Shown here: piece after piece, positions 32,961-39,444 of the stretch
Position numbering within the stretch: the first letter of the stretch is position 1
How the letters are laid out: every line of letters begins with the position of its first letter
Source: an uncultured Candidatus Saccharibacteria bacterium
GTDB lineage: Bacteria > Patescibacteriota > Minisyncoccia > Phycocordibacterales > UBA918
Length of the DNA stretch: 64,000 bases
Reading direction: 5' to 3'
Assembly: GCA_964399295.1 (NCBI GenBank)
Contig: CAYNQD010000001.1
Span: forward strand, 463,672-527,671
Program-made: the position numbers and the translations under genes
The notes under the pieces: generated by a model
Database searches by the model: none
The model's input: only the letters and a program-made list of their open reading frames with translations
Told to the model about the DNA's origin: nothing

Positions 32961-33059
32961 CTCGAGCCCATGACTCATTCTCAGGATACGTTGCAAAATA
33001 TAGCGATTTTAGGAGACTCGATAGTTCTCACATGACTGCTGACAGTCAGAGTCGTACAC
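32961..33059. repeat. island repeat copy A: conserved ~60-bp block (gagcccatgact..ttgcaaaatatagcgattttaggagactcgatag.tctcac) followed by a degenerate tRNA-Gln 3-prime-end remnant (atgactgctgacagtcagagtcgtacac)
   Basis: Aligned by eye to copies B, C and D. Confidence 0.7.
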
Positions 33060-33198
33060 TTGTGTGGTGAGACACCGTAAGCACATTATGTGAGTTGGTA
33101 TATGGCTTCAACTAGGCGTCTAATTGTGAATGATACAAATGAGACACAAAACACCCGTTTCGGTCTATGTATCATTAAATATAGAGCGTATTATGAAC

Positions 33199-34929
33199 TC
33201 ATACAATAAGTACATCGCCGTATATTTCCAAGAAAAGACTGGCAACTTTATTTTTCTGTTTAACTGAAACTGTTTTCACTCCTTGTTGTTTTTTGCTATA
33301 TAACTCGTTTATACTTTCAATAATTTCACCTTGTACTAGACGAATGAAATCACCAACCCTATCAGCATCTTTATCTATGAAATTAACTGCATTGCCATCA
33401 TTTATTAGATAGACACTCTTATTATCAAGTAAAATCTCAGAAACAAACTCATCGCTTCTAATAATTGTGCAAGCACTATTATCTTCACACTTAAAACCAA
33501 ACTCATCTTCTGAAGAAGTGACTGAGGCAACAAATGATCCTGATTGCAGATTCTTCAGATCATCAAGCGTTAGAGAGCGCGAACCAGTGGCAGAAAACAA
33601 TATATTGATAGCTTTAATAAGTTCACCCTTTTGCATCGGGATACAGCCATCTTTCATTGCTTCAACTAATTTTAATGGGTCTGTGTCAAATACAAATGGT
33701 TTGCAATTTTGATTAAAAAGATATTTTGCAATTCCTTTGCCTAGTTTTCCATATCCCAATATACCTGTTTTTACATATCTTGGTAATACACGATATTTTC
33801 GAGTAATCATTTCTGTATAATATGCGACACTATATCCGACCAAATCATCTTCATTTTGCTTTAATTCACTTCGAGCAACAGAAAAAACAGGAATTGTAGG
33901 GCTGATATGTGTGAATAATTTTTCATATTTCTGAAGACCATTTTCGGTATCCTCGACAATGCCTAAAATTTGCGAGTTATTAGCACAAAAATCAAGGAAC
34001 TCTTCCGTCGCAAAATATCCTCCAATGTCGATAATTAGACTTTTCTGATTTTTCGGAAATAGTTGTGATAATACTGTCTGACCCTTCAACTCTTCACGGG
34101 ATACCTGAGCGAAGTTAAAGTCCTGGATTGCCCCACGCACCAGTTCCGATATTGAGTTTGGTTTGGGAATTATTGTTAATGATTTAACTTTATTTTTAAG
34201 CACAGATATAAAAGGGACTATGTCTGTAACGATATGTTGTACAGCAATCACACTGCAGTCACTCAAATCATATTCACTGAGCAACCGTTCAAAATAAATA
34301 TAGTCACGCTTTTTGGAAACAAACATCTCAACCTTCTTGGCCACTCGTGACAAACTTTCATCTTTAATAAATATTTCTGTGATTGGCACAAAATCGTAGC
34401 CATCGATCTCCTCTTCTGAGATTAGTCCTTGATTATAATTCTTTAAGACGAAAACGTAGCGGAGATCAAAATGGAGATGTTCTGGCTCGCCCTTTTTAGG
34501 ATTTTCTGGAATAACATGAATATCAATATCAATTGGTACATCGGTTCCTTTAAAAGCGGGGATGTACATTAAATCTATAAACCCGGTCTCTTCCGCCACC
34601 TCTCTTTTAGCAGTTTCATAAAAAGAAGAGTCAGTCTCATCAACATGCCCGCCGGGCTGGATAAATTTGCCGAGCTTTTTATGTTTAATTAGGAGTATTT
34701 TGGAAAGAGTTGGGTCAAGCACAATGGCACTGGCAGTGATATGTCCAAAGGTATTTTTTCTAGAAATAACAGAAGAGTTTGTGTAAAATAATTTTGATAG
34801 TTTTTCGTCTATCTCAATTGTTGGATAAACATGCAAATATTCTTTGACTATTTTATTTACATAAACACGAGTATCTTGGTCATTAGAAAACATGTTGCTT
34901 ATTTTAATATAGATAATATAAATAAACAA
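33199..34929 (-). CDS. fusion protein: N-terminal NUDIX hydrolase domain plus S-adenosyl-L-homocysteine-hydrolase-like (SAHH-fold, NAD-binding) domain; probable start at the internal Met (about 34893)
   Basis: Nudix box GGHVDETDSSFYETAKREVAEETG. C-terminal blocks parallel SAHH (IDIGGY ~ DDGGD; VEDTENGLQKY ~ TEETTTGVHRL; GILGYGKLGKGIAKYL..DTDPLKLVEAMKDG ~ GYGDVGKGCA..EIDPINALQAAMEG; ILFSATGSRSL ~ IFVTATGNKDI). Confidence 0.6.
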   Translation of the reverse strand: MFIYIIYIKISNMFSNDQDTRVYVNKIVKEYLHVYPTIEIDEKLSKLFYTNSSVISRKNTFGHITASAIVLDPTLSKILLIKHKKLGKFIQPGGHVDETDSSFYETAKREVAEETGFIDLMYIPAFKGTDVPIDIDIHVIPENPKKGEPEHLHFDLRYVFVLKNYNQGLISEEEIDGYDFVPITEIFIKDESLSRVAKKVEMFVSKKRDYIYFERLLSEYDLSDCSVIAVQHIVTDIVPFISVLKNKVKSLTIIPKPNSISELVRGAIQDFNFAQVSREELKGQTVLSQLFPKNQKSLIIDIGGYFATEEFLDFCANNSQILGIVEDTENGLQKYEKLFTHISPTIPVFSVARSELKQNEDDLVGYSVAYYTEMITRKYRVLPRYVKTGILGYGKLGKGIAKYLFNQNCKPFVFDTDPLKLVEAMKDGCIPMQKGELIKAINILFSATGSRSLTLDDLKNLQSGSFVASVTSSEDEFGFKCEDNSACTIIRSDEFVSEILLDNKSVYLINDGNAVNFIDKDADRVGDFIRLVQGEIIESINELYSKKQQGVKTVSVKQKNKVASLFLEIYGDVLIV

Positions 34930-34931
34930 AG

Positions 34932-35031
34932 CTCGAGCCCATGACTCGTTCTGAAACTACATTGCAAAATATAGCGATTTTAGGAGACTCGATAGGTCTC
35001 ACTACTCTGCTGTGTCCCGCGGTCTAGAACC
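34932..35031. repeat. island repeat copy B (conserved block plus degenerate tRNA-Gln 3-prime remnant tgctgtgtcccgcggtctagaacc)
   Basis: Near-identical core ttgcaaaatatagcgattttaggagactcgatag shared with copy A. Confidence 0.7.
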
Positions 35032-35098
35032 TTTTGCGGTGACAGGCCATAAGGATATTCTGATAAAGATTCCTATACCAAACTGATCTGTCTCGGTC

Positions 35099-37746: not shown

Positions 37747-37794
37747 CAGTCAAACTCTATCCAAGGAAACTCCCGTCAAAAACGGGAGTTTCTG

Positions 37795-38145
37795 TTAACG
37801 ATCCTTCGTTGACTTGATCCACCCTCCGAGCATCCTCCCTATTTCGTCAAGATTGGCTTCGATGATGATGTATTTTTTAGCATCAATCGCTTTTACATCT
37901 TTCATGAGGCGAATGCAGACTCGCAGAAAATTAAGTTTGACGCTCGTCTTCTCCAAGGTCGGCAGCTTATCTGACTTAGACTGCTGGCTTGCGAAAATTA
38001 TACCTTCTAATACATCGATTAGTAGACTTTCGCATTTTTGCCAGAGCGTGTAGCGATCTTGCTTTGGAACGGATAGGCGCAGATTATAGAAATCTTTGTA
38101 GAGATCGTAGCTCTTCTTGAAAATTGGTATATCTAAATCATTCAT
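37795..38145 (-). CDS. avd: DGR accessory variability determinant-like protein (four-helix-bundle family, TIGR02436-type)
   Basis: MNDLDIPIFKKSYDLYKDFYNLRLSVPKQDRYTLWQKCE ... EIGRMLGGWIKS matches the four-helix-bundle/Avd family. Confidence 0.7.
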   Translation of the reverse strand: MNDLDIPIFKKSYDLYKDFYNLRLSVPKQDRYTLWQKCESLLIDVLEGIIFASQQSKSDKLPTLEKTSVKLNFLRVCIRLMKDVKAIDAKKYIIIEANLDEIGRMLGGWIKSTKDR

Positions 38146-39247
38146 ATGAAAATTTATAAGAATTTATACTGGTCAATAATTTCTCCTCAGTCCCTATTTA
38201 GGGCTTGGGAGATATTTAAGTCCGACAAAAGGAACAAGCCTGACGTTGCCGAGTTTGAGTTGAACATCGAGCAGAATATCTTCGATCTGTATCGCGATTT
38301 GAAGAATGAAACATATCGGCATGGGCCATACAAAGGATTTTGGATACACGATCCGAAAATCAGACGGATACATAAAGCGGCTGTTCGAGATCGAGTCCTT
38401 CATCACACTACTTTTGCTGTTTTGAATAAGATATTCGAGCCGACTTTTATCGACGATTCGTATTCGTGTCGTATCAATAAAGGTACTCACAAGGGTGTGG
38501 AGAAAGTTGCCAATATGCTTCGTGCAGCGAGCAAAAATAATACTCGCCAATGCTACGCTCTGAAATGCGATGTGAGAAAATTCTTTGATTCCGTCGATCA
38601 CCAAGTGCTTAAAGACATCCTTAATAGGAAAATCAAGGATCAAAAGACGATTTCTCTTCTGGAAGAAATTATTGAGAGTTACGAGAAAAGCGGAACTACG
38701 AGAGAGAGAGAGAGAGAGAGAGAGAGAGAGTAAAACGCTGTCGCTTTTTACTATAAATACCAATAAAGGGGTGCCCATCGGCAACCTGACTTCGCAGATT
38801 TTTGCCAACATTTATATGAACGAGTTTGATCAATTCGTTAAGCATGGACTTCGTGTGAAAAATTATGCGCGATACACCGACGATTTCATGATTATATCAG
38901 AAGACAAGAAGTATCTCGAAGAATTGTTGCCGAAATTGCAGGAGTTTCTGAGAGAAAAACTGAAACTCGAATTACATCCGAACAAGATATCTATTCGGAA
39001 ATTCCATGAAGGTATAGATTTCCTCGGGTATGTGATATTTCCACATTACCGACTGCTACGAGCGAAAACCAAAAAGAGGGTTTTGAGGAATATACGCAAG
39101 AAAATGGCGTGCTATCAGAAAGGTCTGATTCCTGAAAATCACTTACATCAAAGCATGCAGTCTTACTTAGGTGTTTTGTCCCACACGAACACTTACGAGC
39201 TGACAGAGAATTTGAAGAACCAATATTGGTATTGGCTTAAAGAATAA
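38146..39247 (+). pseudogene. DGR-type reverse transcriptase, reading frame interrupted by an (AG)15 repeat (track ORFs 38146..38733 and 38585..39247)
   Basis: RT motifs 1-3 in the first ORF (RRIHKAAVRDRVLHH; FIDDSYSCRINKGTHKGV; ALKCDVRKFFDSVDH). In the second: DGR-diagnostic motif 4 (PIGNLTSQIFANIYMNEFD), catalytic YTDD (YARYTDDFMII) and motifs 6-7. The frames differ by +1 across the repeat. Confidence 0.75.
38701..38730. repeat. (AG)15 dinucleotide simple-sequence repeat inside the RT gene
   Basis: Read directly: acg(ag)15taa. Encodes (RE)n in either frame; one added repeat unit or two removed units would fuse the two RT ORFs. Confidence 0.9.
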
Positions 39248-39297
39248 AGATTTAAGTATGACTAAATAAGAGTCTAAGACACCTAAAAATACCAGTT

Positions 39298-39373
39298 CAA
39301 GCCCATGACTGGTTCAAATTTAAGATTGCAAAATATAGCGATTTTAAGAGTCTCGATAGCTCTCACATGACTG
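39298..39373. repeat. island repeat copy C (conserved block abutting the authentic tRNA-Gln 3-prime end)
   Basis: caagcccatgactggttc..attgcaaaatatagcgattttaagagtctcgatagctctcacatgactgctg runs directly into the tRNA-Gln. Confidence 0.7.
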
Positions 39374-39444
39374 CTGCCCGACAAGGACTCGAACCTCGAT
39401 ACCATGGACCAAAACCATGTGTCCTACCATTAGACGATCGGGCA
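39374..39444 (-). tRNA. tRNA-Gln (anticodon TTG) with U1-A72 pair and G73 discriminator
   Basis: Manual fold of the minus strand: acceptor tgcccga/tcgggca, D-stem gtct/ggac, anticodon stem catgg/ccatg with loop ttTTGgt, T-loop ggttcgagtcc. Confidence 0.75.

Follow-up and report, generated by a model that had tools for sequence, protein, structure and literature searches.

What gathers a run of unrelated small genes, set between repeated sequences, beside a single tRNA gene? The question is raised by a 64-kb window (the whole stretch of DNA analysed here, ~44% GC) of contig CAYNQD010000001.1, whose closest relatives by flanking genes and repeat matches are metagenome-assembled genomes (MAGs) of Patescibacteria. 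On its minus strand a tRNA-Gln gene adjoins an island of three or four small cassettes, one of which is a diversity-generating retroelement (DGR). An earlier reading made without database searches (the sequence-only reading) had proposed serial site-specific integration, or accretion, at this one tRNA gene. The identities between the repeats, their junctions and the related loci support that proposal, and we conclude with good confidence that site-specific integrative elements have accreted here in tandem at the 3' end of tRNA-Gln, all of them in copies without a recombinase. The window holds a decayed array that points to a widespread element family, undescribed in the literature searched.

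The tRNA-Gln gene is authentic, as had been stated, being recognised by ARAGORN and by Rfam (57 bits) at 39373-39444. It is intact, forms one boundary of the island and is the docking site of the insertions: its 3' terminus reads ...GGGCAGCA, with CAGCA at 39372-39376, and the insertions start immediately after this motif. The block that follows CAGCA is called here the left end (LE), and a second module, which itself ends in ...CCAGCA, is called the right end (RE). The tRNA gene and the block sequences are placed as follows.

39373..39444, minus strand: tRNA-Gln, anticodon UUG (ARAGORN; Rfam RF00005, 57 bits)
39287..39372, minus strand: LE-C, left end of the tRNA-proximal module (nhmmer with the LE profile, E = 3.7e-19)
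34923..35007, minus strand: LE-B (nhmmer, E = 4.9e-28)
32932..33036, minus strand: LE-A, the block plus part of an "extension" known from other genomes (nhmmer, E = 8.1e-28, profile positions 1-112)
35888..35964, minus strand: junction after RE-D, the block side of the former "copy D" (alignment; begins GTCAT, then divergent non-block sequence)

Four copies of the block had been reported, and three of them were confirmed. Copies A, B and C were recovered by a repeat search (direct-repeat family D1, at 32959-33061, 34930-35032 and 39294-39396, 75-76% identical), by the 34-mer TTGCAAAATATAGCGATTTTAGGAGACTCGATAG (3 occurrences in the window against 0 expected, all in the island), and by an nhmmer profile built only from the LE copies of other genomes (5e-28, 8e-28 and 4e-19 at the three copies), which had no further match anywhere else in the 64 kb. 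In the formal alignment that the sequence-only reading had recommended, A, B and C align as LE. Copy D (35919-35987) is not a block copy: the LE profile has no match there, it has in common with A only CAGCAGTCAT and the tRNA-like side, and what it shares with A and B is the RE.

Across the family, the LE is ~85-165 nt long and starts right after the CAGCA of the tRNA. It consists, in order, of a GAGAC-N7-GTCTC hairpin with three sequence variants, the invariant CTAAAATCGCTATATTTTGCAA, a terminator-like CGAGTCATGGGCTCG and a T-run, and in most other genomes the extension adds ~75 nt that end in a second T-arm-like GGTTCGARTCCTAG followed by a T-run. The LE also ends in an inverted T-arm-like GAGTCATGGGCTCGAAC. 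LE-C has the hairpin variant GAGAGCTATCGAGACTC, a subtype that it shares with two elements bearing a large serine recombinase (LSR), L040 and L044, and it is truncated inside its extension, where it abuts the reverse transcriptase (RT) gene of the DGR at 39 nt from the stop codon. LE-B is 96% identical to the LE located directly after tRNA-Gln in L002, a Minisyncoccia MAG. The density of GAGAC/GTCTC is 18 per kb in the att zones vs 1.25 per kb in the window (~14-fold). The LE matched no Rfam family of structured RNA, since Rfam returned only tRNAs (in the window at the gathering threshold, in 5 loci at an E-value threshold), and RNAalifold on the LE plus extension gave 19 pairs with zero compensatory changes. 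A sigma-70-like promoter was sought on both strands of the LE and none was found, the only signal being the terminator-like hairpin; a promoter role of the block was rejected on this ground. A dif/Xer-like site was also set aside, since the invariant AAAATCGCTATATTTTGCAA, compared by eye with dif consensus sequences, showed no arm symmetry. Judged by its sequence, the LE may be a recombination arm that also supplies the tRNA with a trailer and terminator, and tRNA-Gln transcription is probably terminated by the LE after insertion.

The second module is common to A, B and D, where it lies upstream of CAGCA on the tRNA strand and spans ~95-160 nt.

35965..36058(-36125), minus strand: RE-D, full-length right end of ~160 nt (nhmmer with the RE profile, 6e-20; aligned with RE-A and the REs of L029 and L033; AGACCGAGACAC motif enriched)
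35008..35103, minus strand: RE-B, short form (nhmmer with the RE profile, 2.9e-19; alignment; ends ...GGGACACAGCA)
33037..33122(-33180), minus strand: RE-A with the distal repeat 33115-33176 (nhmmer, 4.2e-16; repeat families D2 and D3; alignment; ends ...GACTGTCAGCA)

The RE contains the 33115-33176 / 36058-36119 repeat, AGACCGAGAC motifs, CCTTAYGG and a terminal GGTTCnAGnCC..CCAGCA; it is rich in GAGAC and AGACCG motifs, and its terminus ...CCAGCA mimics the tRNA-Gln 3' end. RE-D ends ...GACAGCCAGCA and holds the 36058-36119 repeat, several GAGAC/GTCTC motifs and one CCTTACGG motif. The RE profile recovered copies that had been left out of its building (L033, 8e-17; L029, 7e-12; L035, 5e-11). 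The repeats had been described as ending in degenerate tRNA 3' ends, and the resemblance is real: counted by hand, 13/24 (A), 15/24 (B) and 17/24 (D) positions of the RE terminus agree with the true tRNA-Gln end, and CAGCA is invariant. The idea of a displaced tRNA copy did not stand. The terminus GGTTCTAGACCGAGAC..CCAGCA is kept across genomes whatever the acceptor stem of the host tRNA, and it is therefore a conserved, element-borne terminus and not a displaced host tRNA end. A decayed-tRNA origin of the RE was rejected, as the P-arm profile matches the true tRNA-Gln only over the last ~30 nt (E = 0.3-5), and a resemblance of the RE to the tRNA D-arm (CCTTATGG vs TCTAATGG) was unsupported. 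RNAalifold found no consensus fold for the RE, and single folds resembled those of shuffled sequences (z-scores -1 to +0.9). With LE-RE junctions at A and B, an LE at C and an RE at D, the repeats read as two distinct conserved element ends, not as one att repeat.

The LE occurs well beyond this window. Scanning 185,579 species genomes with a 20-mer from the block gave 11 genome matches, of which 6 were true (Minisyncoccia, Saccharibacteria, Taylorbacteria and unclassified lineages) and 5 (L003, L004, L006, L010, L011) were chance 20-mer matches; a 22-mer scan of metagenomes added six contigs with an LE. Each of the 6 true genomes has a single stretch, and every true copy, whether from the genome scan, the metagenome scan or the loci reached later through proteins, is preceded by the CAGCA of a genuine tRNA-Gln 3' end or of a pseudo one. 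In L002, L013, L014, L015, L040 and L044, the LE sits directly on an intact tRNA-Gln. Blocks scattered at many non-tRNA loci, which the sequence-only reading had named as the sign of a generic repeat, were not what we found, and a REP-like repeat was rejected because the 3 window copies are all in the island and each positive species genome has one stretch, always after CAGCA. The search of other genomes for the block and for an integrase, suggested by the same reading, located the LE across Patescibacteria and a serine recombinase, the LSR, in related elements.

Complete units could be delimited in three of these loci. In L029 (unit of 4.7 kb), an LE is followed by 4.6 kb of cargo and a full RE, and beyond CAGCA begins a native trailer that includes a terminator. 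The 2.8-kb unit of L013 runs from tRNA-Gln and LE through radical SAM, kinase and MazG-like genes (read from the sequences) to an RE. The 0.9-kb unit of L015, in which LE and RE enclose a single membrane protein, lies between tRNA-Gln and a further LE, so that this locus is a second tandem array. The cargoes of the three units are mutually unrelated. Three LE patterns and one RE-terminus pattern had no match in IMG/VR, and BLAST of the unit against phage and plasmid collections gave no match. A 450-aa open reading frame (ORF) beside the LE in L005/L017 was considered and is not an integrase, being antisense to a protein read as GNAT/ASCH-like. In L017 (6530-7800 and 7712-9074), cassettes after RE-type ends open with another leader, AAnTnGAGCGAGGTT...TCGCTTAGCA...AAGCGATAnAATnAGGATATG, which is a second left-end type in the same arrays. 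Beyond a terminator hairpin, native tRNA-Gln trailers (L021/L022; L029 4776-4860) repeat the 3' half of their own tRNA, acceptor strand and T-arm, as a split copy in inverted orientation.

The units spread horizontally. L014 and L012 share a cassette of an LE with MarR-like and MATE-like genes (as read from the sequences) at 99.4% identity over 712 nt, although their tRNA-Gln genes are only 82% identical, and the homology between L002 and L012 begins exactly at CAGCA. LEs of different genomes are 86-96% identical vs 67-86% for the tRNA-Gln genes. Within the window, the LE copies are mutually 76-86% identical vs 96% between LE-B and L002, which favours independent acquisitions over local duplication. 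Between its tRNA and LE, L012 carries a non-coding 195-bp insert (7096-7288) with the tRNA end repeated perfectly and directly over 19 bp on either side. Inside it are one inverted and one direct partial copy of that end, and the insert resembles a miniature element from a different family that uses this site too. The site is also variable among relatives. Four relatives (L019-L022), found through the flanking 696-aa gene (~55-60% identity), keep the order RF-FtsE-FtsX-(PyrG)-696aa-tRNA-Gln, and after their tRNA-Gln there is neither LE nor RE and the downstream genes are different in each; L021/L022 even have a tRNA-Gln identical to that of the window, without an LE. The island is accordingly not part of a conserved core synteny, the case that the sequence-only reading had set against its own proposal.

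Which enzyme could have assembled such an array? As had been reported, there is no integrase in the window: Pfam recognised no integrase, recombinase or transposase among 63 ORFs (nearly all of those of >=90 aa, plus a 44-aa ORF at 36120-36254), and tblastn with the proteins of the LSR module described below found no remnants of it in the window. A candidate came from the distal RE motif, which matched one IMG/VR contig, L033. This contig has a full RE ending in CAGCA, then a trailer of the type found after tRNA-Gln in L019 and L020, and ~10 kb from the RE it encodes an LSR with Resolvase, Recombinase and Zn_ribbon_recom domains. The module order is methylase-methylase-TerS-TerL-LSR, and TerL belongs to phrog_38 (5e-83). 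The 120 best database homologues of the LSR all have at least 84% amino-acid identity and come from many Patescibacteria contigs. Their contexts were picked without reference to the LE, and locus flanks here, as in the other comparison contigs, extended 10 kb at most.

Three other element variants have tRNA-Gln|LE at a distance of 0.9-2.6 kb from the LSR of a methylase-methylase-TerS-TerL-LSR module. The P0171 loci (87% identity; L040-43, 24 contigs read) contain SAICAR synthase, tRNA-Gln, LE (E = 2e-22), an Mrr/nSTAND3 gene and the LSR module, past which are a 355-aa protein, an excisionase-like HTH_17 gene, an MmeI-type enzyme and AAA_13. The P0207 loci (88% identity; L044-48) contain host genes, tRNA-Gln, LE (E = 5e-21), a 304-aa gene, the LSR module and then a DGR. 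In both sets, a single cargo gene separates tRNA-Gln|LE from the module, and the LE and the LSR are thus located in the same elements. On the RE side, L035 (P0143 set) has the module, then 357aa-HTH_17-AAA_13, then an RE. L026, which was reached through a homologue of a window cargo protein with an HExxH motif, opens with the same module (TerL 52% and methylase 60% identical), followed by single-gene cassettes, including HExxH and then NUDIX, that are separated by RE-like repeats. Taken together, these contexts make the LSR the best candidate enzyme for the LE/RE units, with somewhat better than an even chance of being the right one. The module of two N6/N4 DNA methylases, TerS, TerL and LSR is kept across many Patescibacteria contigs, L033-L048 (e.g. 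L033 7750-13030). No capsid or portal genes were recognised with the module in L033-L048, which may point to a satellite-like island, or one competent for packaging, rather than a full prophage.

A link between the window and an LSR-bearing element is provided by the DGR, which makes up the module between C and D.

38146..39247, plus strand: DGR reverse transcriptase, disrupted (Pfam RVT_1 on both halves)
37795..38145, minus strand: bAvd, DGR accessory protein (Pfam bAvd, 3.5e-17)
37632..37750, plus strand: DGR template repeat (TR) (inverted repeat I1, 119 nt, 89% complementary)
36383..37192, minus strand: DGR target gene, with the variable region (VR) at 36391-36509 (TR/VR repeat; 85% amino-acid identity to the L044 target)
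36120..36254, minus strand: basic ORF of 44 aa, between RE-D and the terminator of the DGR target (predicted as a gene on Logan contigs; no Pfam match)

The module contains an RT (RVT_1), bAvd, and a TR/VR pair with adenine-specific differences, 13/13 of the core mismatches falling at TR adenines. Three segments of L044 are homologous to it: 2212-3290 matches 37372-36289 of the window in inverted orientation (85.6% identity), 3306-4534 matches 37373-38600 (79.8%), and 4650-4954 matches 38768-39072 (70%). Between the two, the proteins are 91% (Avd), 85% (target), and 76% and 61% (RT halves) identical in amino acids. The inverted stretch, with breakpoints at 36289 and 37372/37373, comprises the target gene, its promoter and its terminator; since the target segment is inverted, TR and VR are inverted relative to each other in the window and direct in L044. 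About 7 kb of L044, namely the 304-aa gene and the whole LSR module, are absent from the window, where the LE abuts the RT gene. This missing segment, together with the DGR homology, indicates that the DGR unit of the window is a deletion derivative of an LSR-bearing element. It also agrees with the earlier suggestion that the island is mobilised in trans or is a decayed relic.

From these observations, a mechanism can be proposed. A unit consists of LE, cargo and RE, and its circular form would join RE to LE, which creates an attP-like site. Recombination of this site with the tRNA-Gln end, at or next to CAGCA, would give tRNA|LE ... RE|trailer and leave the tRNA unchanged. New units could then enter at the tRNA or at existing junctions; each RE|LE junction is a potential new substrate, and so units would stack up into an array. 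The most likely recombinase would be the LSR found inside the same LE/RE elements of other Patescibacteria. Its action on these particular sites and the position of the crossover are deduced from gene content and junctions, and some unit here may still be mobile.

Several observations weigh against this account. No single locus, with flanks of at most 10 kb, had tRNA-Gln|LE, the LSR module and an RE together, and L034-L039 have an identical LSR module without tRNA-Gln or LE within 10 kb on the LSR side. Serine-integrase att sites are expected to have dyad symmetry. By inspection the RE|LE junction has no obvious one, the crossover is mapped no finer than CAGCA, and the GAGAC/AGACCG repeats are more reminiscent of arm-type or accessory sites. 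In the same elements, the excisionase-like HTH_17 gene has beside it a conserved 355-359-aa protein, which could be the real recombinase or a cofactor. Within the window, D has no LE, and neither an RE nor a native trailer was found at the distal island end. Present activity of the DGR unit is doubtful: it looks decayed because its RT is frameshifted, with 73 nt (38692-38764) in place of 21 nt of the intact L044 homologue shifting the frame by +1, and with the intact 349-aa L044 RT as tblastn query, aa 1-182 and aa 190-349 match in different frames. Three metagenomic samples had the identical window arrangement, and thus gave no sign of current mobility. The lesion itself includes a GA tract, (GA)15.5 at 38700-38730 (Tandem Repeats Finder). 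One extra GA unit would reopen the frame, and the lesion might therefore be an on/off switch working by slipped strands, or else a pseudogene or an assembly fault. Independent Logan contigs break at the tract, L001 ending at ~38704 and L023 starting at 38728.

The strongest of the other explanations, though still an unlikely one, is that the family is the same and the recombinase another, either the 355-359-aa protein with its HTH_17 partner or a host enzyme, while the LSR serves its own phage-like module. The two genes are conserved beside the module, the many direct GAGAC/AGACCG repeats in the att zones recall the arm-type sites of tyrosine integrases, and an LSR flank without tRNA-Gln and LE, as in L034, would fit as well. 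However, the 355-359-aa protein had no family match in Pfam, PHROGs or PDB sequences, so that nothing marks it as a recombinase, and it is absent from L044, which has tRNA-Gln|LE and the LSR but a DGR in that slot. No recombinase other than the LSR can be recognised, and two independently sampled variants pair it with the LE. Less likely again is a single composite element, in which everything from LE-C to LE-A would be the cargo array of one LSR-type element that integrated once and lost its recombinase module, the RE-like separators predating integration as in L026. L026 indeed combines an LSR-type module with RE-separated single-gene cassettes in which HExxH precedes NUDIX, the order of the window, and the RE without an LE at D would be accounted for. 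Yet A and B each have a complete LE, of a subtype unlike LE-C and closer to the copies of other genomes, the separators of L026 have no LE, and elsewhere the LE marks the tRNA-proximal end of a unit.

Two explanations dispense with site-specific recombination. That the repeats are generic regulatory or structural sequences, a tRNA trailer/terminator or a small RNA, appears improbable. The terminator-like hairpin and T-run at the LE end, the GAGAC-N7-GTCTC hairpin kept through three sequence variants, and the probable termination of tRNA-Gln by an inserted LE are what it would predict, but it leaves unexplained the absence of an Rfam family, LE helices without compensatory changes, an RE without a conserved fold, the occurrence of one LE per genome in the species scan and only after CAGCA, and an LE conservation above that of the adjacent tRNA. 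Least probable of all is that tRNA-Gln and its trailer were duplicated locally in tandem, with no mobile element involved, and that the extra tRNAs then decayed: L007 has an apparent full-length decayed tRNA-Gln before its LE (read from the sequence) and the repeats are direct and on the same strand, but the LEs of the window are nearer to copies in other members of the phylum than to each other, the RE is kept across genomes and is not a decayed local tRNA copy, and cassettes are common to species with different tRNA-Gln genes. Two further models were rejected outright, an integron with attC sites (the RE has no attC-like fold, and Pfam found no IntI) and an IS200/IS605-type single-strand transposon or PATE (no Y1_Tnp among the small ORFs, and a hairpin in the LE only). 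Serial accretion of LE/RE units at tRNA-Gln is the reading that we retain.

The remaining cargo of the island is located to the left of the DGR.

35099..35887, minus strand: HExxH protein, 262 aa, cargo of the second module (no Pfam match)
33199..34893, minus strand: fusion of NUDIX and AdoHcyase-NAD domains, 564 aa, cargo of the third module (Pfam)
31636..32895, minus strand: PcfJ-like protein, 419 aa, cargo after LE-A (Pfam PcfJ, 2.2e-05, just under the family threshold)

The three cargo modules of the sequence-only reading (Nudix-SAHH fusion, HExxH protein and DGR) are present as described, according to Pfam and the TR/VR repeat, and the HExxH, NUDIX-fusion and PcfJ-like units are recombinase-less cassettes of the same family. 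HExxH homologues in contigs of the Candidate Phyla Radiation (CPR) are 46-77% identical and often stand beside NUDIX genes; in L026, the homologue is inside the cassette array beside the LSR-type module, and the contexts in L027 and L031 had no LE, no RE and no tRNA. NUDIX genes recur after HExxH homologues in L026, L029 and L031, and this recurrence suggests a functional pairing. The NUDIX-fusion region (33001-35000) has 35-36% GC vs 38-55% (mostly 41-50%) outside the island, two other low-GC stretches excepted. Of the island boundaries, the tRNA-proximal edge is fixed at CAGCA. To the left of LE-A, a further RE, a tRNA-end copy and a native trailer were sought and none was found, and as no RE or native trailer follows the PcfJ-like gene, the distal (left) boundary is undefined.

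Two other patches of the window deserve mention. At 13295-13609, a NikA-like mobilisation protein directly adjoins tRNA-Trp and is followed by two proteins resembling type IV secretion system pilins, one with an SLT domain; this patch (13219-15936) may be another mobile or conjugation-related one. A low-GC stretch (1001-5000, 31-35%) encodes DUF6176, GNAT, nucleotidyltransferase and radical SAM/SPASM proteins and looks like another accessory island, in which no LE or RE was found.

Little has been described of the mobile elements of CPR/Patescibacteria. Our results point to a single tRNA-Gln end as a hotspot where cassettes with conserved ends build up, and through which a DGR and genes for defence and for metal or drug efflux pass between members that lie far apart in the phylum. 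An earlier classification regarded nearly all CPR DGRs as cell-encoded (Roux et al., 2021; PMC8144416). One such lineage is now placed on a site-specific element bearing a terminase and an LSR, which offers a route of spread. If the LSR is the cognate enzyme, the tRNA-Gln end and the RE|LE junction would be a testable natural attB and attP for a very conserved serine integrase family. A bolder possibility, which we hold only tentatively and think rather doubtful, is a Patescibacteria-wide system of integron-like cassettes driven by an LSR, in which the methylase-TerS-TerL-LSR module would capture, stack and exchange LE/RE cassettes at the tRNA-Gln end, perhaps with packaging by the terminase, and recombinase-less arrays would be mobilisable in trans. 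DGRs, NUDIX and HExxH genes, and genes for restriction and other kinds of defence would be among its cassettes. The system would then be a chief driver of flexible gene content in these very small genomes and of the dispersal of DGRs, and would yield LSR attB/attP pairs that form a natural family.

The literature searched contained no account of tRNA-Gln-specific elements in CPR/Patescibacteria. Islands that target tRNA genes have an integrase of their own, a trait absent from the window and present, as the LSR, in L040-48. The likeness to integron arrays lies in small, mostly co-oriented, recombinase-less cassettes split by a recurring sequence that resembles a recombination site, and in the start of the array beside a divergently oriented recombinase module in L026 and L034. 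Unlike integrons, there is no IntI tyrosine recombinase, the RE has no attC-like imperfect palindrome, and docking is at the end of a tRNA gene. The tycheposon islands of Prochlorococcus are also anchored at tRNA genes and grow by successive integrations that leave partial tRNAs between the elements and push older ones outward; they include degenerate remnants without integrases, and some members combine cargo with packaging genes like those of phage-inducible chromosomal islands (bioRxiv 10.1101/2020.12.28.424599). Tycheposons, however, use tyrosine recombinases and leave true partial tRNAs, whereas here the LSR is the only recognisable recombinase and the boundaries are the element-borne LE and RE.

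Cis-mobilizable elements (CIMEs) keep attL and attR, have lost the genes for integration and transfer, and stand in tandem at the 3' end of a target gene as a result of repeated site-specific integration (Guedon et al., 2017; PMC5704250). Similarly, the window units keep att-type ends in tandem at one site without a recombinase, and the LSR module is missing in comparison with L044. CIMEs are defined relative to a cognate integrative and conjugative or integrative and mobilizable element with a conjugation or mobilisation module, mostly with tyrosine integrases and in Firmicutes. In our case, the putative parent would be a terminase-bearing, LSR-encoding CPR element, and any cis-mobilisation is putative.

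With CIMEs and tycheposon islands as the general frame, the closest described system is that of the ssrA islands of Dehalococcoides, tandem islands downstream of one small-RNA gene that are bounded by copies of its 3' end, about half of which have an LSR integration module, the rest being proposed to be cis-mobilizable (McMurdie et al., 2011; PMC3146451). Like the modules of the window, they stand in tandem, bounded by sequences resembling the 3' end of the gene, with additional conserved nucleotides about the repeat. Here the elements target tRNA-Gln in a member of Patescibacteria, in place of ssrA, and their cargo includes a DGR. The junction here follows the last gene bases (CAGCA), whereas it lies in the T-loop in Dehalococcoides, and the ends here are a long conserved LE and RE in place of a 20-bp direct repeat. 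No integration module is present in the window, unlike in the LSR-bearing half of the Dehalococcoides islands, and the related recombinase module combines the LSR with TerS, TerL and two methylases, in contrast to DsiA/DsiB/ParB in Dehalococcoides.

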